Part shown: positions 19,265 to 61,045 of the stretch, piece by piece | Position numbering within the stretch: the first letter of the stretch is position 1 | Layout of the letters: the number at the start of each line of letters is the position of its first letter | NCBI GenBank assembly: GCA_016187835.1 | Contig: JACPIY010000028.1 | Coordinates: 33,455 to 97,454, forward strand | Source: Deltaproteobacteria bacterium | GTDB lineage: Bacteria; Desulfobacterota_D; UBA1144; Nemesobacterales; CSP1-2 | Direction: 5' to 3' | DNA: 64,000 nucleotides | Program-made: the position numbers and the translations under genes | The notes under the pieces: generated by a model | Databases searched by the model: none | Told to the model about the DNA's origin: nothing | What the model saw: only the letters and a program-made list of their open reading frames with translations

Positions 19265-19843
19265 GTGAATTTTGAAGAAAATTTTACAAGGAGTAAGATT
19301 ACTCGCCGAGATATGCTTGCCAAGATGGGTACTGGTTTGGTGGCCATCACGGTTAGCAGTGTTTGGGGGCAAATTAGTCCTTCACAAGCTCGGGCCAAAG
19401 GTGTAGCGCTGCGTAACCTTACCACTGTTGAAGGCCGTACGCTGGAGGCTCTCGGAGACATTTTGCTGCCTGGTGCCAGCGAAGCTGGTATTGCGCACTA
19501 TGTAGATGACCAGTTGAGTCGCGAAAATCCACTATTTGTCCTGAAATACATGGATTATGTTGGTTCCTATACCGAATTTTATAAACAGGGTTTGCAATCG
19601 CTGGAACGCCAAAGCCTCGCCAACCATGGTCAGCCTTTCGATACGAGTACTCTCGAGCAAAAGGTCGCGCTAGTGCGCGAGATTTCACAGAAAAACCCGG
19701 ATGGCTGGAGCGGACCACCTGCGCCTTTGTTTTATTTTGTCACCCGCAACGACGCTGTAGATGTTTACTATGGCACGACGCGGGGCTTTGAGAAGCTTGC
19801 GATTCCCTATATGGCCCATATTATACCGCCGCAAAAGTGGTGA
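19265..19843 (+). CDS. Gluconate 2-dehydrogenase subunit 3-like small subunit with a Tat signal
   Basis: A twin-arginine motif (TRRDMLAKMGTGLVAITVSS) precedes a domain typical of the small subunits that pair with GMC flavoproteins. Confidence 0.55.
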   Translation: MNFEENFTRSKITRRDMLAKMGTGLVAITVSSVWGQISPSQARAKGVALRNLTTVEGRTLEALGDILLPGASEAGIAHYVDDQLSRENPLFVLKYMDYVGSYTEFYKQGLQSLERQSLANHGQPFDTSTLEQKVALVREISQKNPDGWSGPPAPLFYFVTRNDAVDVYYGTTRGFEKLAIPYMAHIIPPQKW

Positions 19844-24577: not shown

Positions 24578-24764
24578 GGTTTTATAATTTAGCCACGAAT
24601 TGACACGAATGAACGGAATCACACAAGTAAAACGATGCACGATTCATGATACAGGATACAAGATGCACGTTAAATATTTATAAATCATGCATCATGTATC
24701 GTAAATCCTGCATCTTGTTTGTTTCATTCGTGGCCACATTTAAAGCTTACAAACTGGAGAGACT

Positions 24765-26243
24765 TTGATGATTACCATAGAAGACCTAAGAAAATGCGTA
24801 AAAGACGGGATTCAATTTGTTGAATCTCAAAATGATATTAGAGAAGCTGAGATATTCGCTTCCTGGAACGACAACGTGACGGTTAGAATCAATTACACAT
24901 CCGATATTCCGTGTAATGGTGTCCATGAGCCAAAAAACATCGTCGGGTATGGAGTTGGCATTGTAGCTGTGTTTGACACACCTGAGGGTTTCAAAATAGG
25001 CTCAGGAAGCGATACTGGAGACTTGAGCCCTGAGGGAATAAAGAGGGCCTTTGAGAAAGCCAGACAAAATTCGGTGAGCGACCCTAATTTTAAATCCCTC
25101 CCCCCTCCACCCGATGAAACACCCAAGCTTATTTCATATCATGACATGAACGTGATGAATTTAATGGATGAAGACATGGTCTCTCTTGGCTGGAGTGCTT
25201 TAAAGGGCGCTCTGTTGACATTTAAAGACGCGGGTTTTCTAAAGAGCCTGATTGTGGGAGGCGATGTTACGATTCTAAAAGAGAGAATGGCGATAGCAAG
25301 CACTCTAGGGATTGATGAATATGATGAGTCCTCCGCTCTCTTTGCATCCATTACTTCAATGATTGAGGAAAAGGATGCAAAAGGCACTGGGTGGACTACT
25401 GCGACTCATCTTGACAAGTTCAAACCGGAAGAAGCTGGAGCGATGGCGGCGATAAGCGCGATAAGCACTATTGAAGGGACGAGGATAAGATCGGGAAGCT
25501 ACAACGTGGTTTTTGGAAGGCAAGCCGTCGCCATGCTTTTCTCGGAGATGATAATTTCAGCATTATCCCTTAACTCAATAGATTCGGGTAACTCTCCCTT
25601 CGTCGGGAAGTTAGGGGAAAAGGTCGCTTCCGACATTGTTTCTATATATGATGACGGGGCAAGACTCTGGGAAGTCGGGAGCAAAAAAATTACCTGTGAG
25701 GGAATTCCTACGGGAAGGACAGATTTAATAGAAGAGGGAAGACTGGTTGGATTTCTTTCCAACAACTACTATGCGAAAAAGCTAGAGAGCAACGTTGCCA
25801 AATTTACACCGAGAAACGGGTTTAGGTTTGGAGATTTGGGAAGGGATTTTAGGCAAAACAATTCTATTTTTGCTACGAATCTTGTGATAGAAGGAACGAG
25901 GGAATTGGACTCCGGAAAGCTGATTTCCCATGTAAAGGATGGAATCTACATTGGAAGACTCTGGTATCTCTATCCGGTTCACGGACTGGTAAAGGCGGAC
26001 TTTACTGGGACCGTGATTGGCGATTCGTATATAATCAGAAACGGAAGATTGGAAGAGCCGCTCAAACCCAATACCGTGAGAATCAGCGATAACTTTGTAA
26101 ATCTCCTCCAAAACATCACGGGAATATCAGAAGAGAAAAGAACTACGATGATCTGGGATTCCAAAGAGGTTGTGATTGCCCCTGAGATTGCTGTTAAAGG
26201 AATGAGTCTCGAAAACGTTGCTGAGTTTGTGGAGGAGTTGTAG
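24765..26243 (+). CDS. pmbA: PmbA/TldE-family protein, partner of TldD
   Basis: TldE/PmbA family features (…GDSYIIRNGRLEEPLKPNTVRISDNFVNLLQNI…). It has no HExxH. It lies immediately downstream of tldD. Confidence 0.7.
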   Translation: MMITIEDLRKCVKDGIQFVESQNDIREAEIFASWNDNVTVRINYTSDIPCNGVHEPKNIVGYGVGIVAVFDTPEGFKIGSGSDTGDLSPEGIKRAFEKARQNSVSDPNFKSLPPPPDETPKLISYHDMNVMNLMDEDMVSLGWSALKGALLTFKDAGFLKSLIVGGDVTILKERMAIASTLGIDEYDESSALFASITSMIEEKDAKGTGWTTATHLDKFKPEEAGAMAAISAISTIEGTRIRSGSYNVVFGRQAVAMLFSEMIISALSLNSIDSGNSPFVGKLGEKVASDIVSIYDDGARLWEVGSKKITCEGIPTGRTDLIEEGRLVGFLSNNYYAKKLESNVAKFTPRNGFRFGDLGRDFRQNNSIFATNLVIEGTRELDSGKLISHVKDGIYIGRLWYLYPVHGLVKADFTGTVIGDSYIIRNGRLEEPLKPNTVRISDNFVNLLQNITGISEEKRTTMIWDSKEVVIAPEIAVKGMSLENVAEFVEEL

Positions 26244-26295: not shown

Positions 26296-28848
26296 ATGAA
26301 GCCATATAAAGGTAAGCTTCTCTTATCAGCACTTCTTATAGCAACACTCACGTGTTTCCTCACGTCAAACTCCTATGCCCAATTAGAATCAAAGGAAAGA
26401 GGATGGAAGGGGCCATTATGTAAAAGACCAACATGCAAAAACGAGTTATTAAAAGAATTAAAAAAAGTTCAAGGAGACAGATATCAAACAGTTGAAGGTT
26501 ATATTATACAAGGCGATGACATTATTGCTATTATAAAAGAATCCAATATTGATATTAAAATCTATAACTCAATTATAAAGGGCGGGTTGGATTTTTCTAA
26601 GATACCAGAAGTCAATGGCAAACGTGAGGTAAATAATAAGATTGTGATATTGGATTCTGAAATTGGCTCTCGGCTTGAATTTTATTTTGCAGAAGAACTT
26701 CAAGAGGTTACTATTTTGCTGAGGTTAAGGGAAGAATCCATTCTTGCACAGCAAACCCATTTTAATAGAGATATCTTTTTCAGTTTGAAAACCACTTTCA
26801 ACGGTGATGTAGATTTTGCAGGCGCAACATTCAACCGAAATGCAATCTTCTCAAATACCACATTCAGTGGATATACAGGCTTTTCTGGAGTCACATTCGT
26901 TGGTAAGGCGTATTTTTCATATGCCAAATTCAATCGAGATACAAGCTTCGTTCGAGCCACCTTCGACAAGGAAGCAAATTTTGGACTAACTGTTTTCAAT
27001 GGTGAGGCAGACTTTCCGAATTCTACTTTCAAGCAAGGGGTAAACTTTGATAGAGCTGAGTTCAATGGTTATACGAACTTCTCAGGAGTAACCTTCAGCG
27101 GAGAAACAATATTTTGGAATACTAGCTTCACCAAAGTAGCAGATTTCAGAGATTGTAGTTTCAGTGGAATTGCAACGTTCTTGAGTACAAACTTTATTGA
27201 TGTGGCAGACTTCTCAAATACCACTTTCAGCAGAAATGCAAACTTTCAAGAAGCCGTATTCGAAAAGGCAGCATATTTTAGAAAAGCAACATTTTATGGT
27301 CTCTTATCCTTTGCAAATTCTTCATTCAAAGGATACGTTGGCCTGAGAGACACTACAATCAAAACAATTTACTGGATAAATTTCTCCTCAAGCTCGTCTG
27401 TTTTTGGCTTGATTGATATTTTAGGCCGGGTTGAACTAAGGGATGCTCAAGTTACAGAAGCATATTTTGAAGATATCTTCTTCAAAGATGATGTAGATTT
27501 TTCTGACACAGAGTTTGGTAGCCCTTTTCTGCTGTTTGATCAAAGTGATGTTCTTAATTGGCAAAAGCTTTTTAATAAGTTAAAAGAAAATAAAATTTCA
27601 GAAAAAAACACTTTAGCTAACCAAATAAATGAGAAGCTAGATCAGACACTTGAACGCCATGGAATTAACCTTAGTAAGGTTAAAGAGTTCGACGATAGCC
27701 TTAAAATAAAATTTATTGTTGCTTTGAATTCAATTCTCGAAAACACAGATTTATCTTATGAAGAATTTTCTGAACAGCTAGATAAAGAAAATCAGATAGC
27801 AAAAAAACTTCTGAAGAAAGATAGAGATAAACTTACTCGAATCGAAACAACTCTTTTAAATAGATTTCTAATTGAGTCTCTCTACCCAGACATTATCGCA
27901 AGTAAAACGCGGGAAATACAAGACGATGACTTTGCAACTGTTTTCAGATTTGTTACTTTTGGCTCTGATGTAAGTTTTGTCAGGACAAAATTTTATAGCA
28001 ATACTGCCTTTGAAAGCCTTACTTTTAAAAAAGAGACCAACTTTACAAGTGCTGAATTTAAGAAAAGCATATTCAGCATTAATGAACCAATATTTTCTCT
28101 TTCATACCTGAATTTTAGAAATTTAATTATTAATTTCGAACAGCTTCCCAAACTTGAAAACTGGGTACGTGATTCAAAGCATCGCATAAAAGGGCGGGCA
28201 GATAGGTGGAATAAGTCTAACAATTTGGGGAAGCCCCTCCAACCTGTTTCACAAGTGTTAGCAGAACTGGAGTCAACCTTTCTCAAGGAGAACAAGCTAA
28301 GTGACATGAACGAGGCTCATTATCATATGAAAATTGCTGAACTGGACGAAAAGATAGTAGATTGTAAGAACACGAATAGGGACTTTATACAATGTCTCAT
28401 CACCACTGAAGAAGGGAGAGAGTGGCTTAAATGGGGTTGGAGCAGTGGATATGGCGTGAAATTATGGCGGGTTGTCAAATGGTATATCGGTGTTTGGGTT
28501 TTTTTCGCTTTTATTTATTATGCACTTAGGGAGGATCTTGAAACAAAGAAAAATAAAGACACAAAGCCTGATTCTGAATTCAGGTCGAGGCTGCACAACT
28601 TTCCCTGGCACTTCTTAAAATCTGAGGGCATCAAAAACAAAAAAGTATTGGATTTCTTTACTGCTCTAAGATTCAGTAAAGTGCTACTTTTTAAGATTGG
28701 ACGGAGAGACACAGTGGCTTCAGGCAAACTAGTAATGACTATGGTATGGTTTGAGTGGATACTCGGATACTATTTGCTTTTGGTTTTTATAATCACCCTT
28801 ACAAACACTGTTCCTATCCTTAATAGTATTTTGAGTAGCGTATTCTAA
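26296..28848 (+). CDS. Large (850 aa) secreted pentapeptide-repeat protein with a central coiled-coil and two C-terminal TM helices
   Basis: Signal peptide. About 60 consecutive A(D/N)FxG-type pentapeptide repeats (ATFNRNAIFSNTTFSGYTGFSGVTF...). C-terminal hydrophobic helices WYIGVWVFFAFIYYAL and WILGYYLLLVFIITL. Confidence 0.75.
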   Translation: MKPYKGKLLLSALLIATLTCFLTSNSYAQLESKERGWKGPLCKRPTCKNELLKELKKVQGDRYQTVEGYIIQGDDIIAIIKESNIDIKIYNSIIKGGLDFSKIPEVNGKREVNNKIVILDSEIGSRLEFYFAEELQEVTILLRLREESILAQQTHFNRDIFFSLKTTFNGDVDFAGATFNRNAIFSNTTFSGYTGFSGVTFVGKAYFSYAKFNRDTSFVRATFDKEANFGLTVFNGEADFPNSTFKQGVNFDRAEFNGYTNFSGVTFSGETIFWNTSFTKVADFRDCSFSGIATFLSTNFIDVADFSNTTFSRNANFQEAVFEKAAYFRKATFYGLLSFANSSFKGYVGLRDTTIKTIYWINFSSSSSVFGLIDILGRVELRDAQVTEAYFEDIFFKDDVDFSDTEFGSPFLLFDQSDVLNWQKLFNKLKENKISEKNTLANQINEKLDQTLERHGINLSKVKEFDDSLKIKFIVALNSILENTDLSYEEFSEQLDKENQIAKKLLKKDRDKLTRIETTLLNRFLIESLYPDIIASKTREIQDDDFATVFRFVTFGSDVSFVRTKFYSNTAFESLTFKKETNFTSAEFKKSIFSINEPIFSLSYLNFRNLIINFEQLPKLENWVRDSKHRIKGRADRWNKSNNLGKPLQPVSQVLAELESTFLKENKLSDMNEAHYHMKIAELDEKIVDCKNTNRDFIQCLITTEEGREWLKWGWSSGYGVKLWRVVKWYIGVWVFFAFIYYALREDLETKKNKDTKPDSEFRSRLHNFPWHFLKSEGIKNKKVLDFFTALRFSKVLLFKIGRRDTVASGKLVMTMVWFEWILGYYLLLVFIITLTNTVPILNSILSSVF

Positions 28849-29536: not shown

Positions 29537-29729
29537 GGGGCCCTTCAAATCTGCAAATTCACCCCACGACAGGCTCAAGGAATATTTAGTTGACAACCAG
29601 CAACCGACAAGAAAAAAGAAGAGATTGCTTCGCTTCGGAATGACAGTGAGAAATCCTATACGGGGTGATCGGTTTGTTCAGACTTCTTTTTTCTCAATAC
29701 GTCACCCTTTGATAAGGTTTGAAACAGAT

Positions 29730-37576: not shown

Positions 37577-39274
37577 ATGCGCCTCAGAATATTGTCAATA
37601 TTTTTCATAATCCTCTACCTGTCGTTTCATTCCATCGGTGAATTGAAAGAACAGAGAAGCGATCTTGGTGTAATGAAAGCCATGCAAGAGGAGTTGAATC
37701 GCTCCTGGGAAAAGCTCAGGCTGGATGGCTATGAGTCTCCCTACTTTATAAGCTATCAGATTAAGGACAATACCTATTATAGTATAGAGGGGAAATACGG
37801 CGCTGTTGTATCGTCCGATAAGAACCGAATGAGACGTCTATTTGTGGATGTGCGCGTGGGCAATTACGAATTCGATAATTCGATAAGGGGACAGTCCGGA
37901 GGCAAGGTGCCTTTTTATAACGCTTCCTATATTCCGGTTGACAATGACGTTGATGCTATAAGAGCCGTTTTATGGCAGGCGACGGATTACGCCTATAAGG
38001 AAGCCCTCTCCCAGTATTTCAACAAGAAGGCAAATTATGTCCAGAAAGTGAAGGATGAGAATTTTGCGAGCTTTTCTCGTGAAAATAGTAATGTCTACTA
38101 TGATCCTGAAGTCAACTTGTTTTTTGATCCCAAGGAGTGGGAAAGTAAGATAAGAGAGATTTCAGCCATATACAAAGACTATAAGGAACTGATAGATGCC
38201 GATTTGGATATAACCGCTCAGAAAGAAACTACTTATTTCATTAATACCGAAGGGACACGATACATAAGAGATGAGATTCTCTATTCCGTGGACGCAGAGG
38301 TAACGACGAGAGCAGAAGACGGGAAGATTATTAAAAACTATAGAAACCTGTACTACGTATTACCGGAGGACTTGCCTTCGGTTGAAATGATAAAGTCGGC
38401 AATAAGAGAAATGGTCGAAGAGACCATAAAACTGAGAGAGGCGGAGGTGCTTACTCCAATAAGCGTCCCTGCCATACTCGAACCTGAAGCAGCAGGGATT
38501 GTATTCCATGAGGCTGTTGGACACAGGCTTGAGGGTGAAAGGCAGATTGACGACAGGGAAGGACAAACATTCAAAGAAAAAGTAGGAGAGAAAATAGTTC
38601 CAGCTTTTCTTTCTATCTTTGATGATCCGACAATGAAAGGCTTAGGTGGAACTCACCTTGTCGGATATTACCCGTTTGACGACCAGGGAGTACCGGGGCA
38701 GAAAGTCCTTTTGGTACAACACGGGGTTTTAAAGAATTTTCTCCTTTCCCGCACCCCTATTGAAGGTTTTAATAAATCGAACGGTCACGGAAGAGCCTCA
38801 TACGGAAGGGCGCCGATGGCAAGGATGAGCAGCCTTATTATTAAGTCTGATAAGGAATACACGAAAGAGAAGCTGAAAGAACTACTTATAGAGGAAGTAA
38901 AACGTCAGAATAACCCCTTTGGGCTTATAATTGAAAGAATGGAAGGTGGCGAGACAAACACCTCGTCTTACGATTTTCAGGCCTTCAAAGCAACGCCCCT
39001 TGTTGTCTATAAAGTTGATCCCAAGACAGGGAATGAAACACTTGTGCGGGGTATAGAAGTTGTGGGGACACCAATTGTTTCAATTAACAAGATTATCGCT
39101 ACCGGAAATGATTACGCAGTGTTTAATGGATTCTGCGGAGCTGAATCCGGATATGTCCCTGTCTCTACGGTTGCTCCAAGCATACTTATTTCGGAAATAG
39201 AGCTTCAGCGCATCTCTGAGAAGAAAGAAAAGCTCCCTATTCTTCCCCCGCCGTTTTTTGACGGGAGTGAGTAG
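37577..39274 (+). CDS. TldD/PmbA-family metallopeptidase paralog with an N-terminal signal peptide
   Basis: GIVFHEAVGHRLEGER HExxxH motif. The hydrophobic N-terminus is MRLRILSIFFIILYLSFHS. Confidence 0.7.
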   Translation: MRLRILSIFFIILYLSFHSIGELKEQRSDLGVMKAMQEELNRSWEKLRLDGYESPYFISYQIKDNTYYSIEGKYGAVVSSDKNRMRRLFVDVRVGNYEFDNSIRGQSGGKVPFYNASYIPVDNDVDAIRAVLWQATDYAYKEALSQYFNKKANYVQKVKDENFASFSRENSNVYYDPEVNLFFDPKEWESKIREISAIYKDYKELIDADLDITAQKETTYFINTEGTRYIRDEILYSVDAEVTTRAEDGKIIKNYRNLYYVLPEDLPSVEMIKSAIREMVEETIKLREAEVLTPISVPAILEPEAAGIVFHEAVGHRLEGERQIDDREGQTFKEKVGEKIVPAFLSIFDDPTMKGLGGTHLVGYYPFDDQGVPGQKVLLVQHGVLKNFLLSRTPIEGFNKSNGHGRASYGRAPMARMSSLIIKSDKEYTKEKLKELLIEEVKRQNNPFGLIIERMEGGETNTSSYDFQAFKATPLVVYKVDPKTGNETLVRGIEVVGTPIVSINKIIATGNDYAVFNGFCGAESGYVPVSTVAPSILISEIELQRISEKKEKLPILPPPFFDGSE

Positions 39275-44964: not shown

Positions 44965-46098
44965 TTATGAAATTAGCTTAGGATAAACTGGCCTTGACTC
45001 AGCTATCTCTTCGGGATAGACGATAACCTTGTTTCCATTCCTCCACTGAACAATTACCATTTTGTGGCCAATCTGAGTACCTGTAGATTGGTCGATCTTA
45101 AAATGACCATAAAAGGTTTTAAAATCAGCTCTGCTTGCAGCTTCTCTAAGAGCATAGTCATCGAGCGTTCCGGCATCTTCAATACACTTTTGGATAACTG
45201 GTCCTATATTATAACTTTGAGCTGCGGTATAGTCGGGTTCCTTCCCATATTTATATTTGAACCTGATAAAAAAATCCTGAGGTGTCGGTCCAAGGTCGGG
45301 TTCTATTTTAATTCCCCCCTCCCATTGGCTTGGTCCCAAAAATCCCTCTACGTCTTTTCCGAGAGTTTGATGAAACTCTTTTATACCGGCTACGACAAGT
45401 CCTATCGCTTTTGCATTTACTTTATTTTCTACAATTTGCTTAGCAAGGAGCAAGTCATCCTCGGCGCGTCCTACGCCGAGGATTAGGTCGGGGATATTTT
45501 CTTGCACCTGTTTTAGAAGAGAGGAAAAATCCTTTGTGCCTGATACATATTTAAGCTCGGTTATCCGGAACCCATTTTCTTCTCCGTAGCGCTTTGCCCC
45601 TTCTGCTACATTTGTGGAAAATCCGCTGTCTTCCGCTCTAAATATAGTAATCTTCCTTGCTTCGTTATCGATTTTTTTTACCATTTCAATAATTCCGACA
45701 AAGTATTTACTAGCAGATGTAATCGTACTTACGATATATTTAGATCCACTCTCAAAAATCTCATCGGATGACCCGCCATGATTCCATAGAATTTTTTTGA
45801 ATTCTTCTGCAATCGGTGCTGCTGCTAGGGTAAGACCGCTTGAGTAAGGTCCTATTAGAACATCAACTTTATCTTTAACGATAAGCCGTTCCACGATTTC
45901 CTTACACTTATATGTCGAACTTTCGTCATCATAGTAAAGAAGTTCTACCGTAAATTTTTTACCGAATTCCTTGACAAAAATACCGCCAGATCCGTTTACG
46001 TCTTTAATCCAAAGTGCAAGCCCTTCAAGGCTCTCTTTACCTTGATTTGAATATCTCCCACTTAATGAGATAGGAATGCCGAATTTTATCTTTTGCAT
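44965..46098 (-). CDS. Periplasmic-binding-protein type I substrate-binding protein (branched-chain amino acid ABC transporter SBP-like)
   Basis: The FGIPISLSGRYSNQGKESLEGLALWIKDVN pattern is that of the LivJ/LivK family. No signal peptide is seen at the called start. Confidence 0.7.
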   Translation of the reverse strand: MQKIKFGIPISLSGRYSNQGKESLEGLALWIKDVNGSGGIFVKEFGKKFTVELLYYDDESSTYKCKEIVERLIVKDKVDVLIGPYSSGLTLAAAPIAEEFKKILWNHGGSSDEIFESGSKYIVSTITSASKYFVGIIEMVKKIDNEARKITIFRAEDSGFSTNVAEGAKRYGEENGFRITELKYVSGTKDFSSLLKQVQENIPDLILGVGRAEDDLLLAKQIVENKVNAKAIGLVVAGIKEFHQTLGKDVEGFLGPSQWEGGIKIEPDLGPTPQDFFIRFKYKYGKEPDYTAAQSYNIGPVIQKCIEDAGTLDDYALREAASRADFKTFYGHFKIDQSTGTQIGHKMVIVQWRNGNKVIVYPEEIAESRPVYPKLIS

Positions 46099-46183
46099 TG
46101 ATAGAATTCTACGTGATGAAGGTTTAATCGTAAATTTGGGAAATAAAGTTTATTTAGTATAAAACGGACAATGTAAGTACTAT

Positions 46184-46575
46184 TTTTCACCCTCTGTCAA
46201 ATTTCTCAAGGCTGTCACTCCTAGGGTTTCTACCTCACAGCCAGTACTTAGCAAAGCAAGTAATAAGGTCCGCTGAGCAATCTGACAAAAGGTGTTATTT
46301 CTCGAAGGCTAAGATTTCTCCCCCATGAGATATGAAATTATCTCACGGGGTCGAAATGACATGAGGGGAGGTCGAAATGACAGGTGGGTCGGTCAAAACG
46401 ACAGTCTCATTTGTCATTCCGAACCCTGTCCCGAGCGAATGTGAGGGAGCTTGTGAGGAATCTTGTTGTTTTCAGGATGACAGGAGAAACGGTTGAATGA
46501 CAGTTACTTGATAGGAATTATTAAACTAGGTGAGACTTGGCTCCACATTGTCTGTTTGGTCAAATTTAGTTTTTT
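46184..46575. repeat. Intergenic repeat element copy 1 (about 390 bp)
   Basis: It is largely colinear with copy 2 at 54664-55050 and near-identical to it over several stretches (not computed). It contains the hairpin ccccatgagata-tgaaat-tatctcacgggg and the modules gtcgaaatgaca(2x) and ggtcggtcaaaacgacagtctcatttgtcattccgaaccctgtcccga. Confidence 0.65.
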
Positions 46576-46609
46576 AAAGATAATGAGATGATTTATCTCT
46601 TTGTCGAAT

Positions 46610-47812
46610 TCATTTTAGCTTCTCAACTGCCTTTTCTATCCTATCAACTCCCTTTTTGATCTCTTCCATTGAAGTTGCATAGGAAATTCTTATATGATTG
46701 TCTGACCCGAATTCCGCTCCCGGAACGACTGCTACTTTTGCTTCTTCAAGAAGAAATTCGGTAAAATCGAGAGAGTTTCTGATTTCCTTCCCATTATACT
46801 TTCTTCCGAAGAACTTAGAGATATTTGGAAATGCGTAGAATGCACCCTGGGGATTAAAGCATCTAAAGTCAGGAATCTCGTTTAGTCTTTTAACTATGTA
46901 GTTCTTCCTTCTCTCAAATTCCTTCGACATTCTTTTAACTTCGTCTTGCGGACCTTGAAAAGCCTCTATTGCTGCTTTCTGAGAAATGGATACGGGATTT
47001 GATGTGGACTGGCCCTGAAGGTTATTCATAGCCCCGATTATTCCTTTATCTCCTGCTGCGAATCCGATTCTCCACCCCGTCATGGAATAGGACTTTGAAA
47101 CTCCATTTACGAGGATTGTTGATTTCTTTACATCCTCTCCAAGCGTTGCAACTGGAGTGTGAGTGAGTCCATCATATAAAATCTTGTCGTAAATCTCATC
47201 GGAGATAATGAGAAGTCCGGAATTCATCGCGACATTAGCTATTTCTCTAAGTTCATCTTCACCATAAGTGGCTCCGGTAGGATTTGATGGATAGTTCAGT
47301 ATCAGAGCTTTTGTTTTTGGGGTTAAGAGTTTTTTTAGTTTATCCAGATCGATTTTAAATCCGTTTTCTTCTTCAGTTTCAATAATTATGGGCGTTCCAC
47401 CGGCAAGGGTTATCTGCTCAGGATAGGAAACCCAGTAAGGTGACGGGATTATAACCTCATCTTCCTCTTCAAAAAGGACTTGGGATAGGTTGTAGAGCGT
47501 GTGTTTAGCCCCACACGATACTGTTATTTCTGATTTTTCATACTTTAGCCCGTAATCTTCTTTTAACCGATGTATAATTGCGTTTTTAAGCTCGTCAATT
47601 CCGCCCACAGCCGTGTACTTTGTAAATCCTTCTTTGATCGCTCTTACCGCTTCTTCCTTTATATTCTCGGGAGTGTCAAAATCAGGTTCCCCTGCACCGA
47701 ATCCTACAATGTCTATACCTTCTGCTTTTAGGGCTTTTGCCTTTGCCGTAATTGCAAGTGTCGCCGATGGTCTTAATTTATCCGCGCGAGCAGACAGTTT
47801 CATTAACTTCAT
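46610..47812 (-). CDS. Aspartate/aromatic aminotransferase (PLP-dependent, class I)
   Basis: Class I PLP aminotransferase pattern (…NPTGATYGEDELREIA…SKSYSMTGWRIGFAAG… with the PLP-binding Lys). Confidence 0.85.
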   Translation of the reverse strand: MKLMKLSARADKLRPSATLAITAKAKALKAEGIDIVGFGAGEPDFDTPENIKEEAVRAIKEGFTKYTAVGGIDELKNAIIHRLKEDYGLKYEKSEITVSCGAKHTLYNLSQVLFEEEDEVIIPSPYWVSYPEQITLAGGTPIIIETEEENGFKIDLDKLKKLLTPKTKALILNYPSNPTGATYGEDELREIANVAMNSGLLIISDEIYDKILYDGLTHTPVATLGEDVKKSTILVNGVSKSYSMTGWRIGFAAGDKGIIGAMNNLQGQSTSNPVSISQKAAIEAFQGPQDEVKRMSKEFERRKNYIVKRLNEIPDFRCFNPQGAFYAFPNISKFFGRKYNGKEIRNSLDFTEFLLEEAKVAVVPGAEFGSDNHIRISYATSMEEIKKGVDRIEKAVEKLK

Positions 47813-48303
47813 GCCTCCTGCTTCTTAAGTAATTTTTCTCTTAGCTTTTGCTCTACAATTTCCGGAATCATTTCTTTAGCTGAGCCACCTAGGGTTATTA
47901 TTTCCTTAATTAAAGAAGAACTTATATGTGAATAAGCACTTTCTGTAACCATGAAAACCGTTTCAAGCTCTGAATAAAGGGTTTTATTGGCAAGAGCCAT
48001 CTGAAATTCATATTCAAAGTCTGATACCGTTCTCATACCACGTAGCACTATGTTTGTTCCGATTTTTCTTGCATAATCTACAAGCAGTCCTTCAAAGTAG
48101 TCTACCTTTACCTCAGAACTGTTAGGGAAAATCTCCCGAATGATTTCGACTCTTTCTTGAAGCGTAAAAGTCGTTTTTTTAGATACATGATGGGCAACCG
48201 CAACTATAACTGTATTAAAGACTTTCACTCCACGCTCTATGATGTTTATGTGGCCGTTTGTGAACGGATCGAAAGAGCCGGGATATATTGCGACTTTATT
48301 CAT
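47809..48303 (-). CDS. coaD: Phosphopantetheine adenylyltransferase
   Basis: MNKVAIYPGSFDPFTNGHINIIERG. Confidence 0.9.
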   Translation of the reverse strand: MNKVAIYPGSFDPFTNGHINIIERGVKVFNTVIVAVAHHVSKKTTFTLQERVEIIREIFPNSSEVKVDYFEGLLVDYARKIGTNIVLRGMRTVSDFEYEFQMALANKTLYSELETVFMVTESAYSHISSSLIKEIITLGGSAKEMIPEIVEQKLREKLLKKQEA

Positions 48304-48851
48304 TCCTCACCTCTCCTGAAAAAGCTAACCTGAGTGCCTCCGAAAGATTTTGTAATTCTTCTGAAACCCATAGGTGTATCATCTATCTTGTAGTTGTGCT
48401 CGATTACGATTACACCTTCATTTTCAAGAAGTTCTGACACTCCATTTATAAAATCATTTACCTGTTGCTTTCCATAGAGAATATAGGGCGGATCAATGAA
48501 TATTAAGTCAAACTTCTCCCAGCTTTTTTGTAGTTTTTTTAGCGCTCCCTCATAGTGAGCGAAAATTAAGGTTGCTCTATCAAGGAATCCACAAAGTGAG
48601 ATGTTTTCCCTAAGTATCTTATAAACAGAAGGATTTTTTTCAATAAACGTAACATGAGCCGCTTCACGGCTCATAGCCTCGATTCCAAGACTCCCCGAGC
48701 CCGCAAATATATCGAGGACTTTTAAACCGCTTATGTCGCCAAGCGTATCAAAGATTGACTTTTTGATTCTGCTTGTAGTCGGACGAACCGTTTTTCCTTT
48801 TGGAACTTTGAGTTTTCTTCCTTTTGCCGTACCTGTAAGCACCTGCAACAT
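48300..48851 (-). CDS. rsmD: 16S rRNA (guanine966-N2)-methyltransferase
   Basis: GSGSLGIEAMSR...IFIDPPY, together with the conserved rsmD-coaD arrangement. Confidence 0.85.
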   Translation of the reverse strand: MLQVLTGTAKGRKLKVPKGKTVRPTTSRIKKSIFDTLGDISGLKVLDIFAGSGSLGIEAMSREAAHVTFIEKNPSVYKILRENISLCGFLDRATLIFAHYEGALKKLQKSWEKFDLIFIDPPYILYGKQQVNDFINGVSELLENEGVIVIEHNYKIDDTPMGFRRITKSFGGTQVSFFRRGEE

Positions 48852-49000
48852 TTGGTTTGATATACTACCATGTTAACTAGTTTTGGCAAAAAATGAGTTA
48901 TAAGAATTCTAGCCACAGAGAACACAGAGTGCACGGAGAGTTTTTTAAAAAATCTTTCTCTGCGTTCTCTGTGAACTCTGTGGGCAAATGAGGCTTTTAC

Positions 49001-49814
49001 TTATCTGATTTCAATTTTTCTGCAAAAAAAGGCGAGTGTCTTCTCCCAGGAATCCTTTGCAGCTTTGGCGTCATAAGAACGACTTTCCTGATTGGAAAAG
49101 GCGTGACCTGCTCCTTGGTAAACGTTGATGCTGACGTCTTTCCCTAACGCCTTCATGCTTTCTTCAAATGTCTTGACACTGATTGTGGGAATTCCTCTGT
49201 CTTGGTCTCCAAAGAAGCCGATAACGGAGGCTTTAATTTTTGCAAGCTCATTTTTATCGGTCACAAGCCTACCGTAATAAATCACGGATGCTGCTAGATC
49301 GGGACTATTTATCGCAAGTGATAATGAATATCCTCCTCCCATGCACCCATCCGATAGAGCCTATTTTATCTTTTTTTACCTCAGGCAGTGATTTGAGATA
49401 TGAAACGGCTGCGAGCATGTTCTTTACCGCTCTATCCTCTGGAAGCCCTCTCAAAAGCTCATGCGCTTCTTCCGGGTCTTTCGTCACCTTTCCTCGGTAA
49501 AGATCAACTGCAAGCGCAACATATACCTCTTTTGCCAGCCGTTTTGCTTCACCTTTTACCTGGTCATTCAGTCCCCACCATTCATGTATCACTATGATTG
49601 CGGGAAATGGTCTCTTTCTTTCGGGTATAACTAGGAATCCCGAGATCGTTTCTTCACCAGACTTGTAGCTCACCATTTTACCTTCCGGAGGGCTTTCGGA
49701 TTGGGTTTTCAGAGGAGTTCCCAGTAACAATAAGGAAACTAAAATCAAAAAAGAAATAGGTGAAAAAAATACCTTCATTATTCTAAACCTCCAGGGGCAC
49801 TTATAATCAGCCAC
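49001..49814 (-). pseudogene. Dienelactone hydrolase family protein, split by a +1 frameshift near 49335
   Basis: Signal peptide followed by IIVIHEWWGLND. KIGSIGW|CMGGGYSL is split between frames; tgggtgcatggg should read tggtgcatggg, so there is an extra G. Confidence 0.6.
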
Positions 49815-50364
49815 ACTTTTCTGTAATTTAAAGTTTCAATTGCTAATACAATTTCAGGGAATGATGTTCCAGTATGTCACTGATTATGATTTTAAACCCA
49901 GCACTTGGACGCTAGATCTATTTATTCAAGTTCCTGATGACGCCAATGGTCGAAAGACAACTAGACGGACTAATGAGTTTGTAGTGCAAAGATAGTTAAA
50001 GATTCGATTACTACAAGTTGCTAAAATAAAAAATCTTACGAGGAAAAATGACAATACTAGCTATTGTTTCCCAATTATTTGTGCAAATTTGCACAGTTTT
50101 TACAGTGTATTTTTACACAGATAACCGTATTTTTGTTTTTCCTGAGTCCGTCTGGTATCTATAACTTATTGTAACAATTAAAAATTAGGAAAATCTTAAA
50201 CCCGCTGGTACGAATATTGCGGATAAAGTTTTAGAATTATGAAACCTTAATATCGCGGACACCCTCATGGAGGTCCTCCCGGACATTATAAGTTTAAAGT
50301 GAAACATAAACGCGGGCATAAGTAATTTTTATCGTTTCAGATACCAAAATTTTCTCTTGAGAGT

Positions 50365-51363
50365 GTGATGACGATGATGAGATACTCTGAAAATATAAGA
50401 GAAGATCGAATCATAAGGGTATGTTTTTTCAGTTTTATTTTCGCGTGCTTATTATTTGTAGCATGCTCCTCCCCGGAAAAGAAACTCGAAGAGGCAAGAG
50501 AGCATTACACAAAGGGAAGGGATGCATATATGCTTTTCACGCCAAAAGGTTTAGAGGAAGCAATAACTGAGTATCAAAAGGCTATAGATTTGGATAAAAA
50601 CAATGCGCTTCCATACGCCGGACTTGGCGAAGCTTATTCCTTCTTGGGTTTGTGGAAAGAGCAAAACGATAATAAAAAAGATAATGGTCTCTATGATAAA
50701 TCCCTTCAGCATAGCCAAAAAGCAGTGGAGCTTGCTCCGGACTTGGGTGAATCTCATCGCGCTCTCGCTTCCAGTTATCGTGCCTCGGGTAAGTTTGAAG
50801 AGGCTAAGAAGGAAGCAGAAAAAGCAATAGAGCTTAACCCAAAAGATTCCGAGGCTTATTATGTACTCTGGACCCTAACTGGCGTGGATGTAAATAGTAA
50901 AAACATTAAAAAAGCCTTTGAGTTGAATCCGAATCTAAGCATAGCTCATAATGACCTTGGCTATATCTACTACACCAAGGGCAAGTATGAGAAAGCTGCT
51001 GAGCATCTAACGCGTGCGATTGAGATTACCCCTGATCTGATCCAAGCCCACACCAACCTTGGGCTTACCCTAGCGGCTCAGAAAAAGTTTGACGAAGCAG
51101 AGGAGGAATACCGGAAGGCAATTGAGATAAACTCTGATTATCTACTTGCACATTATAATCTAGGCGTTGCTTTTGGAAGCCAGGGCAAGTTTGACGAAGC
51201 CATTAGCGAATTTGAAAAGGCAATCCAAATCAACCCCGATTTCCCCGAGGCTTATATAACGCTCGCACTTGCTTATGAAAATAAAGGAGACAGAGAAAAA
51301 GCACTAGAGCAATATCAAAAGTTTGTTGACCTGGCATCAGCAAATAAATCAAGATATGAATAA
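50365..51363 (+). CDS. TPR-repeat lipoprotein
   Basis: Lipobox LFVACSS. About eight TPR units (AYxxLGxAY...). Confidence 0.7.
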   Translation: MMTMMRYSENIREDRIIRVCFFSFIFACLLFVACSSPEKKLEEAREHYTKGRDAYMLFTPKGLEEAITEYQKAIDLDKNNALPYAGLGEAYSFLGLWKEQNDNKKDNGLYDKSLQHSQKAVELAPDLGESHRALASSYRASGKFEEAKKEAEKAIELNPKDSEAYYVLWTLTGVDVNSKNIKKAFELNPNLSIAHNDLGYIYYTKGKYEKAAEHLTRAIEITPDLIQAHTNLGLTLAAQKKFDEAEEEYRKAIEINSDYLLAHYNLGVAFGSQGKFDEAISEFEKAIQINPDFPEAYITLALAYENKGDREKALEQYQKFVDLASANKSRYE

Positions 51364-51519
51364 CTGGTCGCTGAAGCCGGCAATAGAATTAAGAAGCTCC
51401 AAAAAGAAGATAAGTAATCGAGAGGGATGAACCACCCTGCTAGGGTTCTAAGTTAGCGAACTAAAAGGCGCTATTAGGTCCTTCGATTCTATAAAGACTA
51501 GCCTCAGGTCAAAAGGAGG

Positions 51520-52530
51520 ATGAGCATGAAAAGGCTGGCAAAAAACATACTGTTTCTTGCGATATTAATATCGGCTGTGTCAATAAGCCTCTTAAGCTGT
51601 GGAGGAGGGGGTGGGGGTAATGGTCAATCCAGCGAATCGGGCACAATAAACGGAAGAGTATCGGATGTTATGATGACAATGGCTCCGATGCAAGAAAGGT
51701 CATACATGTTAGCTTTGCTTCAGGAAATTATTAGCTTATCAAAAAAAGCCAATGCCCAGGCTTCAGGCGTTTCTGGAATCACTGTTTCAGCCATCCTGAA
51801 TGGAAATACCGTTGATACCGATACCACTGATGCAGAGGGTAATTTCACATTGACTGCTTTCGGCAATGTGACTCTGGTTTTCGTTACAGATGAATTTACA
51901 ATTTCTATAGATATTTCCATACCGGAAGGTACTGTGGTTAATATAGTTGTCACTCTCCTACCAGATGAACCGGATCCGGACGATCGGGTCGAAGTTGAAG
52001 ATTTGGAAATAGCGGGAACTGTACGTTGTGAAACCGGGGTTCTTAACATAAGTGACTTAGTCAATGATATTGTGATTGACGGAGGAGGGGAAGACGATTG
52101 TATAAGGGTTGAGGGAAGTTGTACTCTTAGTATGGGGTCTAATAACCTTACGCTTACCAATTGTGAGAGGTGTATTGATGCTAGAGGTACAGGCCAGGTA
52201 ACAATTACATCAGTGGATGTTAGCTGTGATGCCAGTGAAGATGGTATTAGAAGCAGAGGAAATTCCGTTGTTACCTTAGATGCCGATGGTGATATTGACA
52301 TTTCGGTTGGGGAAAATGGCATCAGAGCCGACGGTAACTCCGCTACCAGTTTGAGTGCTACTGGTGATATTAATGTTTCAGGGGATGAAAATGGGATTAG
52401 GGCTGAGGGCACGTCGAACGTCAATGTAAGTGCAGATGGTGAATGTTCAATATTTGGAGCTGAGAATCCTGTTCGACAAGACGGTGATCCGACAATCGAA
52501 ATTGCGGATTGTTTTCTCGCAGGACAATGA
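51520..52530 (+). CDS. Lipoprotein with a carboxypeptidase-regulatory-like N-terminal domain and C-terminal degenerate ~22-aa repeats (DGDIxxSxxENGIRAxGNS)
   Basis: Lipobox LLSCGGGGGG. TINGRV...GNFTLTAFG. Repeated ENGIRA(D/E)G units. Confidence 0.5.
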   Translation: MSMKRLAKNILFLAILISAVSISLLSCGGGGGGNGQSSESGTINGRVSDVMMTMAPMQERSYMLALLQEIISLSKKANAQASGVSGITVSAILNGNTVDTDTTDAEGNFTLTAFGNVTLVFVTDEFTISIDISIPEGTVVNIVVTLLPDEPDPDDRVEVEDLEIAGTVRCETGVLNISDLVNDIVIDGGGEDDCIRVEGSCTLSMGSNNLTLTNCERCIDARGTGQVTITSVDVSCDASEDGIRSRGNSVVTLDADGDIDISVGENGIRADGNSATSLSATGDINVSGDENGIRAEGTSNVNVSADGECSIFGAENPVRQDGDPTIEIADCFLAGQ

Positions 52531-52874
52531 GTCTAGAGATGATGATAGAATAAAGTTGAGCATAATTCTTGGAATGAGTGAGTGAACGCAATGTAGGTCA
52601 GAAAAATTATAGAAAATTGGAGCGGTAACGAAATGGCATTGGAATTATTATTTTCTTAGTTTTAAATATAAGTTACATATAAAATTCAAATAAGTTTAGT
52701 TTTGTGGGTTTTGAGTATGTCTTATGAAAAATTTTTCTTGACTTTTTTTTATTTTTATAATAGAAATAAGCTTTCTAGCAAATTCAAATTTGTTGAAGAA
52801 AGTGAATAGTATTTTATATTCTGATGCTATTGAGCTTTGTCTTACCATATTAAACTTATAAGGAGGATAGATTC

Positions 52875-53276
52875 ATGATTCTTATGAGAAATAAGCTGTA
52901 TAGGTTATCGATAATAATTATTGTTCTGTTGAGTTTCACCCCTATGTGTTTAATTTCTAAAAGCGTTGAGGGTGCTACACTCGCCTCGCAGATGATTTCA
53001 TCAGACGGTAAAACATCGGCAAGGGGAATTGAAGAAGCAAAAGTTCGTAGAGCACTTGAGAATAAAATAGTAGCTGAAAAGCTAAAGAGCTACGGGCTTT
53101 CTAAAGAAGAAGTAATAACAAAAATGGAGAGAATGAGCGATGAACAGGTTCATCAGTTGGCTTCTCTTTCCGACCGAATACCGGCAGGCGCTGATGGTGG
53201 TGCAACAGCGGCAGTGATAATTCTGGTAGTTTTTGTAATGGTACTCTTGGTTCTTATAGTGTTGAGAAGGATCTGA
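52875..53276 (+). CDS. Small secreted/membrane protein, recalled as PA2779-family-like (tentative)
   Basis: N-terminal signal/TM and a C-terminal TM (AAVIILVVFVMVLLVLIVL). It sits immediately upstream of a C39-like peptidase, as in the PA2778/PA2779 gene pair. Confidence 0.35.
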   Translation: MILMRNKLYRLSIIIIVLLSFTPMCLISKSVEGATLASQMISSDGKTSARGIEEAKVRRALENKIVAEKLKSYGLSKEEVITKMERMSDEQVHQLASLSDRIPAGADGGATAAVIILVVFVMVLLVLIVLRRI

Positions 53277-53291
53277 TCTTATCTCGAGGTC

Positions 53292-53867
53292 ATGAGGTTT
53301 TCTCTCATGTGTAGGTTTAGGGGGGTCTTTAGGTCTGGTCTACTTTTGGTTGTCGTCTTGCTTATTGCAGGATGTTCTCAGAGACCTTCTATACATGGCA
53401 GTGTTCCTGCTTCGAATGAAGCTAAGGTTATAGAGAACGTCCCCTTTGTAAAACAGAAAGGTAAGTTTTGCGGACCTGCAGCTATGGCTTCAGTAATGAG
53501 ATTCTATGGTCAAAATATAAGTCAGGAAGAAATCGCCAAAGAAGTGTATACTCCAAAACTAGGGGGAGCACTTATATCAGACATGGAATACTTTGCAAGG
53601 GAAATGGGGTATAAAGCAGAAACGAAAAACGGGGATTTAAAGGCGATAATCTCTATTATCAATGAGGGTATACCTACTATATTGATCGTTGACCTTGGAA
53701 AGTGGGTTGTAAGTGTTCCCCATTACTATGTGGTGTATGGTTATAACAAGAGTAGCAGCACGTTCCTACTGCACAGCGGATTCAAAGGGGATCAAGAAAT
53801 GAGTTTTTCTGAATTAGATAAAGAGTGGGAAAAAATGAATAGGCTTATGCTTGTAGTTAGAAAGTGA
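53292..53867 (+). CDS. C39-like cysteine peptidase domain lipoprotein (PA2778-family-like peptidase module)
   Basis: VPFVKQKGKFCGPAAMASVMRFYG is the papain-like C39 catalytic Cys context. Lipobox LIAGCS. Confidence 0.55.
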   Translation: MRFSLMCRFRGVFRSGLLLVVVLLIAGCSQRPSIHGSVPASNEAKVIENVPFVKQKGKFCGPAAMASVMRFYGQNISQEEIAKEVYTPKLGGALISDMEYFAREMGYKAETKNGDLKAIISIINEGIPTILIVDLGKWVVSVPHYYVVYGYNKSSSTFLLHSGFKGDQEMSFSELDKEWEKMNRLMLVVRK

Positions 53868-54484
53868 AAAAATATACAATAAATTTTGTCTTTTTTCTTC
53901 TTTTTTCCTGTCTGCTTTCTGGATGTAGTTACTTTCCAAAGCTAGTACTCCTACAGGACCCCTTAACCGCCGAGGAGCATAACAACCTGGGCGTGGCTTA
54001 TGAAAAAGAGGGAAAATATGAACTAGCCCTGAGGGAGTATAAGAAAGCGTTGGATAAAAAACCCAACTTGACTACTTCTATTGTAAATATGGGAAATGTT
54101 TACTCTAAACAGGGAAAGTACAAACAGGCGGAGAAAAGTTATTTGAATGCGCTCAAGAAAGACGAAAAGAATATTGAGGCCGCCAATAACCTGGCATCTC
54201 TTTATATTGCGCTTAATAAAAACTACGAGAAGGGCTTAGAATATTTAACTAAGGCTACTAGTTCTCATGATCAAATACCTGCCTATGCCCTTGATACTCT
54301 CGGGGTTTTGTACCATAGACTAGGCAACGAACTCAAAGCAAAAGAAATGCTCCTAAAAGCCTGCGAGAGTGTAGATGATGATAGAGCTCTCTTTGAGGAA
54401 ATAGAGGTTCACCTCAGGGAATTGGGTGAGGATGGGTGCAAAAATAAGTCTATTCAGCAACCAGTTTCTCTCGATAAATCATGA
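53864..54484 (+). CDS. TPR-repeat lipoprotein
   Basis: Lipobox LLSGCS. TPR units NNLGVAYEKEGKYELALREYKKAL... The start overlaps the peptidase stop (GTGA). Confidence 0.65.
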   Translation: MKKYTINFVFFLLFSCLLSGCSYFPKLVLLQDPLTAEEHNNLGVAYEKEGKYELALREYKKALDKKPNLTTSIVNMGNVYSKQGKYKQAEKSYLNALKKDEKNIEAANNLASLYIALNKNYEKGLEYLTKATSSHDQIPAYALDTLGVLYHRLGNELKAKEMLLKACESVDDDRALFEEIEVHLRELGEDGCKNKSIQQPVSLDKS

Positions 54485-54663
54485 ATTAATTTTTTCTTCC
54501 TTAAAAGGGAATAATTACCAAGTCATAAATAACCTGGTGATAAATGCACAACAGGCAATGTCTGAAGGTGGATTAATAAAGATCAAGGCCGAGAACCGAT
54601 TAATTCGATAACTATTTAATTGTAATAATCAAGATTTATTCTATCGGACAATGTCAGCACGAT

Positions 54664-55050
54664 TTTCACCCTTTGTCAAAATTCTCAAGGCTGCCAATCC
54701 TAGCGCTTCGATACCTCAGAGCAAAGCGAAGCAATAAACTCCGCGAAGCAATCTGACACCGCTGTCATTCCGAACGTATGTGAGGAATCTTAAACGCCGT
54801 AAAGATTTCTCCCTGCGGTCGAAATGACAGGAGGGTCGGTCAAAACGACAGTCTCATTTGTCATTCCGAACCCTGTCCCGAATCCTTCGGCGGAGTTTAC
54901 ACTGAGCACTTCGATTCTCTCGGTACAGGCTAATCTTGTTGATTTCGAGATGATAAGAGTAACGGTCGAATGACAGTTATTTAATAGGAATTACTAAATT
55001 GGGTAAGATTTACTCTACCTTGTCTGTTTGGTCGGTCAAATTCAAATTGT
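54664..55050. repeat. Intergenic repeat element copy 2 (about 390 bp)
   Basis: See copy 1. Both copies end about 10 bp from the stop codon of a minus-strand gene (pepF here, the aminotransferase for copy 1). Confidence 0.65.
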
Positions 55051-55070
55051 AGAATTTTAATCTCCCTTTG

Positions 55071-57947: not shown

Positions 57948-58279
57948 TTTTCAAAGCCCTATTATTTTCATGATGCATGTGGTTCCCTGAAAACCCCATT
58001 CTTTACCCCGTGAGACAATTTCATATCTCATGGGGTGAATAGCTACTATAGATCCCACCGCGCATCAAATACCTCTAAAAAATTACCATAAAGTGTGGCT
58101 GGAATAAAATCTCGGTCCGAGTTGGAAAGGATAGACGTGGGTGGCTTTCCAGTCCTGTCTTGGTAGACGAAATTGTAAAACCTCGCATATCATTGGACGA
58201 ACGGCCACTCCCCCCTACTTATTAACGTACAAAAGGTCAGGTAATGTGATACCAATGGTAAAATCGAAGAGGTGTAATC

Positions 58280-60837: not shown

Positions 60838-61045
60838 CAGAGTTTATACTTAGCACTTCGATTCTCTCAGTGCAGGCTCCGCGAATGTGCTCGCAATGAC
60901 GATTTAAGGGAAGTTACGCGGCTAACTATGAAACAAATTATAAATAAAATAATATGGTTGTTCAATTTGGTATCTGGGGGTAGGAATTCATCCATGAGAT
61001 ATGAAATTATTTCACGGGGTAAAGAGGGTGACTTTTCAGGGCAAT
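60838..61045. repeat. Partial, rearranged member of the intergenic repeat family
   Basis: Shares tttatacttagcacttcgattctctcagtgcaggct with copy 2 and ccatgagatatgaaattatttcacgggg with copy 1. The 84-aa ORF at 60796-61050 is probably spurious. Confidence 0.45.

Follow-up and report, generated by a model that had tools for sequence, protein, structure and literature searches.

What is the block of non-coding DNA that recurs in two intergenic spacers of an uncultured, sulfate-reducer-like bacterium? The spacers lie in a 64,000-nt stretch of contig JACPIY010000028.1 (positions 33,455 to 97,454), which we analysed as a whole and call the window. An original prediction, made from the letters of this window, had described a four-member family of modular intergenic repeats and had left it open whether they encode a structured RNA or resemble a MITE (miniature inverted-repeat transposable element). 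Our data favour the second reading. We conclude that the repeat is probably a mosaic mobile DNA element, non-coding, non-autonomous and restricted to its lineage, akin to MITEs, to the pneumococcal BOX elements and to the bacterial interspersed mosaic elements (BIMEs).

The two full copies (Table 1) share one orientation within the window and align over ~450 columns with 79% column identity, a similarity far above chance (blastn E down to 7e-30). Both had been recognized in the original prediction, whose five quoted modules all occur in both copies in identical order, but comparison with copies from other assemblies extended the homology beyond the limits first proposed, to ~46128-46576 and ~54620-55060. 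Between the two copies, the left arms are 87-90% identical over 41-47-nt blocks (repeat search, blastn) and the right arms 83% identical over 80-103 nt. A profile of the right arm found five instances with E values from 1e-51 to 5e-36. The middles have in common only a 65-nt core (46370-46434 versus 54817-54881), which is 98% identical. A 21-mer from this core, AAACGACAGTCTCATTTGTCA, had no match in genome and metagenome contig collections, so the core is specific to the source organism. The middle of copy 1 further comprises a hairpin (46321-46351) and two GGTCGAAATGACA units (46349, 46370), in a module order that is repeated in L024 and L025, two loci from other assemblies. That of copy 2 holds a complete TGTCATTCCGAAC...GGTCGAAATGACA hairpin (54761-54830) and a 39-nt module (54893-54931).

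Table 1. Copies of the element, their parts and related sites. Positions are those of the window; loci from other assemblies have no window position.
Feature	Position	Strand	Remarks
Copy 1, whole	46128-46576	+	Alignments and right-arm nhmmer profile; left tip diverged, boundary good to ~5 nt
Copy 1, left arm	46128-46235	+	Kept in copy 2, L023 and L027; holds CGGACAATGT (46166-46175) and TTTTTCACCCTCTGTCAAATTTCTCAAGGCTGTCAC
Copy 1, variable middle	46236-46458	+	Nested small palindromic modules; absent from compact L023
Copy 1, right arm	46459-46576	+	...GAATGACAGTTACTTGATAGGAATTATTAAACTAGG...CCACATTGTCTGTTTGGTCAAATTTAGTTTTTTA; most conserved module
Copy 2, whole	54620-55060	+	Alignments; left tip TTGTAATAATCAAGATTT identical in L023 and L027
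Copy 2, left arm	54620-54715	+	92% identity over 104 nt to L027; 87-90% to copy 1
Copy 2, variable middle	54716-54931	+	Repeat search, alignment, blastn
Copy 2, right arm	54932-55060	+	Relative to copy 1, 1-nt deletion and GGTC duplication
PAS/histidine-kinase/receiver remnant beside copy 2	54426-54611	+	54519-54596 matches L003 17282-17359, kinase domain
Intergenic stretch with two small modules	60838-61045		Repeat search and blastn; not a copy of the element
Separate nested-palindrome mosaic	8600-8885		Same small module types; not an arm-bearing copy
30-nt hairpin CCCCATGAGATATGAAATTATCTCACGGGG, third window copy, inverted	58005-58035	-	Inverted-repeat pairs in window repeat search
L023			Groundwater metagenome-assembled-genome contig; compact form of 228 nt, with both arms
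L024			JGI metagenome contig; right arm and middle modules
L025			ENA contig; right arm and copy-1-like middle; found via a spurious predicted open reading frame (P0121) across the right arm
L027			Logan contig; ends with the left arm, 5 nt past a carbamoyltransferase stop codon

An autonomous partner of the element would be expected between TTGTAATAATCAAGATTT...CGGACAATGT at the left and ACATTGTCTGTTTGGTCAAATTTA at the right. The left tip TTGTAATAATCAAGATTT follows unrelated flanking DNA in each of copy 2, L023 and L027, and is diverged in copy 1. At the right the element closes with ...TTGTCTGTTTGGTCAAATTTA(GATTTTTA), which in most copies runs on into G(A/T)TTTTTA, making this boundary uncertain by ~10 nt. 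A 10-nt inverted repeat, CGGACAATGT/ACATTGTCTG, is subterminal, ~25 nt inside the left tip and ~17 nt inside the right one. It is one of the patches to which complementarity between the arms is confined, the other being TTCTCAAGGCTGTCA with TGACAGTTACTTGATAGGAA.

That the element comes and goes as a unit is seen at a pair of loci, one filled and one empty. In L026, the gene that flanks the element of L023 has a homologue of 85% identity, followed by the same downstream carbamoyltransferase fragment, but the element is missing. The spacer measures 377 nt in L023 and 131 nt in L026, and this difference of 246 nt compares with 244 nt for the 228-nt element plus a 16-nt repeat. The repeat, GAGATTTAGAGTTTGT, takes in nine bases at the very end of the upstream gene, stop codon included, and seven more. 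It recurs as GAGATTTAGAGTTTAT (15/16 match) beyond the right end of the element, where the alignment of L023 with L026 resumes. The best local match between the L023 flanks is 22/25, a score that none of 500 shuffles reached. This filled and empty pair, with a duplication that includes a stop codon, offers a concrete lead to the enzyme responsible for its movement.

Orthologous sites in relatives are empty as well. We compared three syntenic loci, L005, L001 and L003, whose aminotransferases are 94%, 88% and 86% identical to that of the window. The gene order rsmD-coaD-aminotransferase-binding protein is kept in all three, yet the spacer between the last two genes is 159-250 nt long, compared with 511 nt in the window, and holds no trace of the element. 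Homology detected by blastn ends at 46107-46115 and restarts exactly at the aminotransferase stop codon. At the site of copy 2, L001 and L003 have an intact 686-694-aa PAS/histidine-kinase/receiver gene between the TPR and M3 peptidase genes. In the window there is only a kinase remnant of ~80-190 nt, directly followed by copy 2, which therefore marks a deletion of ~1.9 kb. The element thus flags a site of gene loss in a rearranged genome.

Members in other assemblies reveal the minimal unit and bear on mobility. Five further loci were recovered from such assemblies, of which four are listed in Table 1. Copy 1 is 88% identical to L024 over 160 nt and 90% identical to L023 over 117 nt. Across hosts the element is 87-92% identical, yet the neighbouring proteins of L023 and L027 share just 78% identity. 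Ordinary intergenic DNA is unalignable even between relatives at 94% protein identity. The conservation of the element is therefore out of step with that of its hosts, which supports mobility. The minimal unit in L023 consists of a left arm of ~95 nt starting at TTGTAATAATCAAGATTT, a small TGTCATTC...GATGACA hairpin and a right arm of ~120 nt, with none of the middle modules. Since L023 keeps both arms without these modules, the window copies correspond to the L023 scaffold with palindromic modules nested in its centre. In a multi-copy alignment the middle ranges from ~50 nt in L023 to ~220 nt in the window copies, and the arms are conserved. Whole elements measure 228-449 nt and have no coding capacity. 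Conserved ends flanking an interior that varies are in keeping with a MITE or with a BOX-like composite repeat.

Among genome contigs, the left-arm pattern gave 15 matches, of which L023 alone is real; the other 14 share at most ~20-36 nt and come from unrelated taxa. Arm and module patterns found nothing in viral contigs. Thirteen viral matches to the AT-rich 18-mer of the left tip fell in unrelated phage contigs without continuation into the element and were discarded. The compact L023 copy had no match among plasmids in distant mode, and a full-text literature search with module sequences returned unrelated papers only. The L023 contig is 3.1 kb long; the only other named relatives of its element-adjacent protein are from Candidatus Dadabacteria (49%) and Armatimonadota (47%). 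We did not rely on its record label, Planctomycetota, and make no cross-phylum claim.

Assembly breaks suggest that the sampled material contains more copies. Logan assemblies from seven runs of one series (SRR12113390-SRR12113429) contain the source organism; three of their contigs were aligned to the window with a 100% match, and the remainder were identified by exact protein identity. Contigs arriving from the left of copy 1 end at 46213 (twice) or 46256, and those from its right at 46509, 46536 and 46540. On the left side of copy 2, contigs stop at 54645 and 54673 (twice), and a fourth breaks off before the element, at 54578. Breaks thus fall inside the arms on all three sides examined, and the opposite ends of the same contigs were scattered where checked. 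The arms of copy 1 and copy 2 have no 31-mers in common, so that further near-identical copies are probably present in the samples. The family accounts for the fragmentation of short-read assemblies at these spacers in this lineage. Taken together, the empty orthologous sites, the target duplication, the identity across hosts and the breaks in the arms support the mobile-element half of the original prediction.

The other half, a structured RNA, has features in its favour. The repeat would in this case be a non-coding RNA gene, possibly mobile, with a promoter at the left tip, a long closing helix between the arms and a U-rich tail, the middle being a tolerated insertion. Copy 1 folds well, with -138 kcal/mol and z = -5.2 on the plus strand and z = -4.5 on the minus strand, and the arms are conserved beyond the needs of a helix alone. 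The left tip TTGTAATAAT, identical in three of four left ends, reads as an extended -10 box (TGnAATAAT) and scored 10/12 in a promoter scan, and a T-rich stretch follows the right end. On sequence grounds the box is compatible with an internal promoter or with a relic of the promoter of a transposase. The outer helix CGGACAATGT/ACATTGTCTG of L023 adds a weak hint: it bears two one-sided changes to G.U that are workable on the plus strand only.

The folding of the other copies speaks against an RNA. Copy 2 folds better on the minus strand, so the favoured strand flips between copies, and on neither strand is the compact L023 copy more stable than shuffles (z = -1.2). We ran RNAalifold on the arms of copy 1, copy 2 and L023, the only copies in which left and right arm are both present, a sample of low power; among 36 pairs it found no compensatory change, five one-sided changes and seven broken positions, with an unfavourable covariation term of +1.34. 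Three uncompensated mismatches lie within the two arm helices of copy 2. The original prediction was correct that many modules can pair, but the pairing reflects nested DNA palindromes, which supply much of the folding energy and are equally foldable as DNA. No Rfam family matched at gathering score anywhere in the window, nor did any match the element in L023-L025. At relaxed stringency (E <= 10) the two copies gave only chance-level miRNA and snoRNA matches (E > 1), none of them credible. A canonical intrinsic terminator was detected neither at copy 1 nor at L023, and L024 and L025 lack the left arm in the available sequence. The structured-RNA reading is thus not supported, with low power from three sequences, and we regard an RNA gene as rather unlikely.

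Other functions for the repeat were considered and dropped. Promoter-like sites on the minus strand lack the conservation between copies that a shared promoter would require. No frame is open in all copies, and there is no shared start codon. A right-arm frame reading SNDSYLIGIIKLGET.LH.VCL.KF occurs in several copies, and in copy 2 it is preceded directly by a stop codon and broken by a frameshift. A profile of the SNDSYLIGIIKLGET peptide retrieved a single protein among 5.8 billion, and this was itself another copy of the element (L025). Gene callers may therefore predict small open reading frames (ORFs) inside the element, as with P0121, and annotators should be warned.

A further question is whether the repeat forms a unit at all. 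The original prediction had counted four members, but only the two full copies stand. Neither a sensitive blastn search with both copies nor the right-arm profile found an arm elsewhere in the window. The region at 60838-61045 shares a 39-nt block (60840-60878) with the copy 2 middle and a 29-nt hairpin (60992-61020) with copy 1. The region at 8590-8900 has just a 20-nt blastn match to copy 2 and a generic TGTCAT..CGAAC / TCGAAATGACA hairpin. Both are different mosaics built from shared small palindromic modules.

These modules invite the view that the two copies are no more than a BIME-like pile-up of units resembling repetitive extragenic palindromes (REPs), made alike by local duplication or gene conversion. 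Small modules do occur alone or recombined at 8600-8885, 29615-29650, 58005-58035 and 60838-61045 and at L023 165-420. In L024 and L025 the right arm is joined to different left partners, and in L025 the CCCCATGAGATATGAAATTATCTCACGGGG hairpin is flipped. However, arm order, orientation and boundaries are constant in both window copies and in L023, in unrelated gene contexts, and the tip recurs in L027. L023 keeps both arms without the middle modules, L023 and L026 differ in size by one whole unit and the flanking repeat, and the arms, unlike the small modules, are found nowhere else in the window. A mere pile-up is therefore, in our judgement, a rather unlikely account.

The small modules also form repeats of their own. 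Short imperfect palindromes of the GTCGAAATGACA type were observed 14 times against 5.2 expected. The mosaics at 8600-8885 and L023 165-420 are long nested palindromes with feet of the TGTCATTGCGAG / CTCGCAATGACA type and inner motifs such as GCGAAGCAATC and CTTCGGCGGAG; as DNA they fold with z = -2.5 and -6.5, respectively. Palindromes of the 8600-8885 type are a second repeat class and the source of the modules nested in the middles of both copies. The near-perfect 30-nt hairpin CCCCATGAGATATGAAATTATCTCACGGGG is present three times in the window, at 46321-46351 and 60992-61020 in the plus orientation and, inverted, at 58005-58035. At L025 456-486 it occupies the position equivalent to that in copy 1 but is flipped (loop ATTTCA, not TGAAAT), which suggests independent insertions in either orientation or inversion of the palindrome's loop. 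The spacer of L005 that is orthologous to that of copy 1 contains a different small module (2990-3060), cccttcgccgagctcaggacaggcttgctcg, like the ccttcggcggag...cggtacaggct module inside copy 2. This one spacer has taken in different repeats in different lineages. Upstream of the element, L025 also has a long G/C-rich perfect palindrome, cacctcccccaccccccctccttaccaaggaggggggtgggggaggtg (278-335), which gives spurious Rfam miRNA matches (E ~1e-4).

Several observations count against the mobile-element reading. The comparison of filled and empty copy 1 sites is not base-precise, the spacer having diverged in relatives. Direct repeats flanking copy 1 and copy 2 are not significant (346 and 291 of 500 shuffles, respectively, score as well), and no target duplication of fixed length was seen across copies. 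The single clear duplication, of 14-16 nt and extendable to 25, is long for a transposon. It also partly overlaps sequence like the element's own ends. The tips are not inverted repeats of one another: TTGTAATAATC and reverse-complemented TAAATTTGACC match at ~4/11 positions by eye. A Pfam scan that took in most, not all, window ORFs of at least 110 aa detected no transposase or recombinase, the REP-associated tyrosine (Y1) transposase included. We found no autonomous element with the same ends among window ORFs, viral contigs or plasmids. L024, whose element begins at the contig start, and L025 have no left arm in the available sequence, and modules may therefore also travel or decay separately. 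Finally, just seven loci were recovered in total.

Some of these anomalies could be explained if integration occurred through site-specific recombination instead of cut-and-paste transposition, with a circular intermediate pairing with targets that resemble the element's joined ends. The repeat would in that case be a miniature integrative element or derive from an element that lacks terminal inverted repeats. The reconstructed L023 target, GAGATTTAGAGTTTATTGTACTAAAGATT, does align by hand with the joined ends AAATTTAGATTTTTA + TTGTAATAATCAAGATT in ~25/34 columns. The absence of inverted repeats at the tips and the insertion points 5-10 nt past stop codons at several ends would also fit. Yet two tandem ATTTAGAG, as present at the L023 right junction, are not what conservative site-specific recombination would leave behind. 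The aligned sequences are AT-rich and of low complexity, their similarity being judged by eye. No integrase or recombinase is encoded at any of the loci, and a single insertion is informative. Site-specific or otherwise unusual insertion chemistry is thus unlikely, and we give the circular-intermediate scheme little credence. Still more speculative, and in our view highly improbable, is a self-transcribed mobile unit with an unusual mode of insertion just past stop codons, whose RNA, driven by the -10 box, guides a recombinase in trans or is reverse-copied into DNA. This could explain why a long duplication (14-16 nt) was seen once, why terminal inverted repeats are lacking and why the target is like the joined ends; it would entail a plus-strand RNA running from ~7 nt after TGTAATAAT to the T-rich right end.

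We therefore return to the non-autonomous DNA element, which may work as follows. The unit is gained or lost as a discrete block of DNA, as between L023 and L026, where one insertion comes with a target duplication. It would be moved as DNA by a transposase or recombinase whose gene lies in another part of the genome. Its conserved ends would be required in cis, and the middle, being dispensable, would serve as a landing pad for small REP-like palindromes. Nesting of such palindromes in the central hairpin would have enlarged the window copies to ~440 nt. Survival would occur mainly in short AT-rich spacers just beyond stop codons, where insertion presumably harms least; a preference for AT-rich targets that contain stop codons could produce the same pattern. 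A dedicated host function seems improbable, the likely side effects being loss of the kinase gene at copy 2 and the filled spacer at copy 1.

Placement near stop codons is a tendency rather than the rule that had been proposed, which has every repeat abutting a minus-strand gene at its 3' end. Copy 1, copy 2 and the mosaic at 8590-8900 do lie near stops, but 60838-61045 sits between recF and a plus-strand gene, in a divergent promoter region. The two full copies had likewise been said to stop about 10 bp from a minus-strand stop codon. This holds for copy 2, which ends 10 nt from that of the M3 oligoendopeptidase gene (55071, minus strand), but for copy 1 the distance is 33 nt. Element ends are often 5-33 nt from stop codons, at the left of copy 2, L023 and L027 and at the right of copy 1, copy 2 and L024.

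Among known repeats, pneumococcal BOX elements (boxA-boxB(n)-boxC; PMC3049150) are similar in several respects. Both are intergenic non-coding composites with pairable terminal modules and variable internal ones, both are enriched downstream of coding sequences, and both are presumably non-autonomous, being moved in trans. The likeness is architectural only, as we saw no sequence resemblance and the host phylum is another. In BOX the interior consists of tandem boxB units, and in our element of heterogeneous nested palindromes; BOX has terminal inverted repeats like those of the insertion sequence (IS) ISSpn2 (PMC3049150), whereas the inverted repeat of our element is subterminal and no candidate IS is in sight. 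For BOX, RUP and SPRITE, location downstream of genes has been attributed to weaker selection (PMC3049150).

With MITEs such as Correia of Neisseria and RUP of pneumococcus, the element shares small size, lack of coding capacity, conserved ends and a variable interior (PMC3184786, PMC10969869). It also resembles them in its presence or absence among relatives, with one target duplication and possibly a promoter-like end. Multiple dispersed copies exist, and sites are empty in L001, L003, L005 and L026. It departs from MITEs in having neither inverted repeats at the extreme tips nor a consistent short target duplication nor an identified parent IS, and its nested secondary repeats nearly double its length. 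The middle modules, as well as 8600-8885 and 60838-61045, recall the BIMEs or REP clusters of enterobacteria and the neisserial intergenic mosaic elements (NIMEs), which are alternating short imperfect palindromes with linkers that follow gene 3' ends and reuse small units in varied combinations. The 95-nt and 120-nt arms, unlike REP units, are long, non-palindromic and far more conserved. The element stands closest to BOX in architecture and to MITEs in behaviour. It seems to belong to no named family and is best filed as a small non-autonomous intergenic repeat.

To our knowledge, no such elements have been catalogued in this uncultured Thermodesulfobacteriota-type lineage. The element alone opens no new question.

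The genes around the copies are ordinary. Copy 1 separates two minus-strand genes, being flanked by the start codon of a periplasmic-binding-protein gene at 46098 and the stop codon of an aminotransferase gene at 46610. The former is 29 nt away from the left end of the copy, whose left tip overlaps a -35-like hexamer of the binding-protein gene downstream. The aminotransferase (397 aa) has its best matches, at 84-94% identity, in uncultured bacteria with the NCBI label Thermodesulfobacteriota. Copy 2 has a plus-strand operon (DUF6627, C39 peptidase, TPR protein) on one side and, on the other, the convergent M3 oligoendopeptidase gene. The mosaic at 8590-8900 lies ~55 nt beyond the stop codon of an M48 peptidase gene that carries a frameshift. 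The Pfam-scanned ORFs represent common chromosomal genes such as mnmG, recF, dapF, acetyl-CoA synthetase, ABC-F and PmbA/TldD paralogues.

Apart from the repeats, the window holds several broken genes: a GMC oxidoreductase in three ORFs (19837-21410), a dienelactone hydrolase in two (49001-49814), an M48 peptidase in two (8955-9790) and the histidine-kinase remnant (54426-54611). An assembly error is an unlikely cause of the dienelactone hydrolase split, since this is identical in an independent short-read contig (L006). Relative to L001 and L003, the rsmD-coaD-aminotransferase-binding-protein block and two genes at 50365-52530 are inverted (44965-52530), and a cyclase gene that neighbours DUF6627 in relatives sits 30 kb away in the window (14491-15336). 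The region has thus been both rearranged and invaded by repeats.

Three direct repeats of ~80-135 nt, 66-81% identical, occur at 59-137, 754-832 and 3218-3296, each just beyond the 3' end of a minus-strand ORF (133-546, 932-1615 and 3386-4267, respectively). One plus-strand frame of all three reads ...AYSWRKTALRHAELYSEILESVR*, as though a gene that runs off the start of the window had had its 3' end duplicated twice; an integrase or glycosyltransferase identity was without Pfam support and was rejected. The three PmbA/TldD-like paralogues lie at 23033-26243 and 37577-39274; two of them are adjacent. Adjoining these paralogues is the gene for an 850-aa pentapeptide-repeat protein (26296-28848), which has 58-nt internal repeats spaced at multiples of 66 nt.

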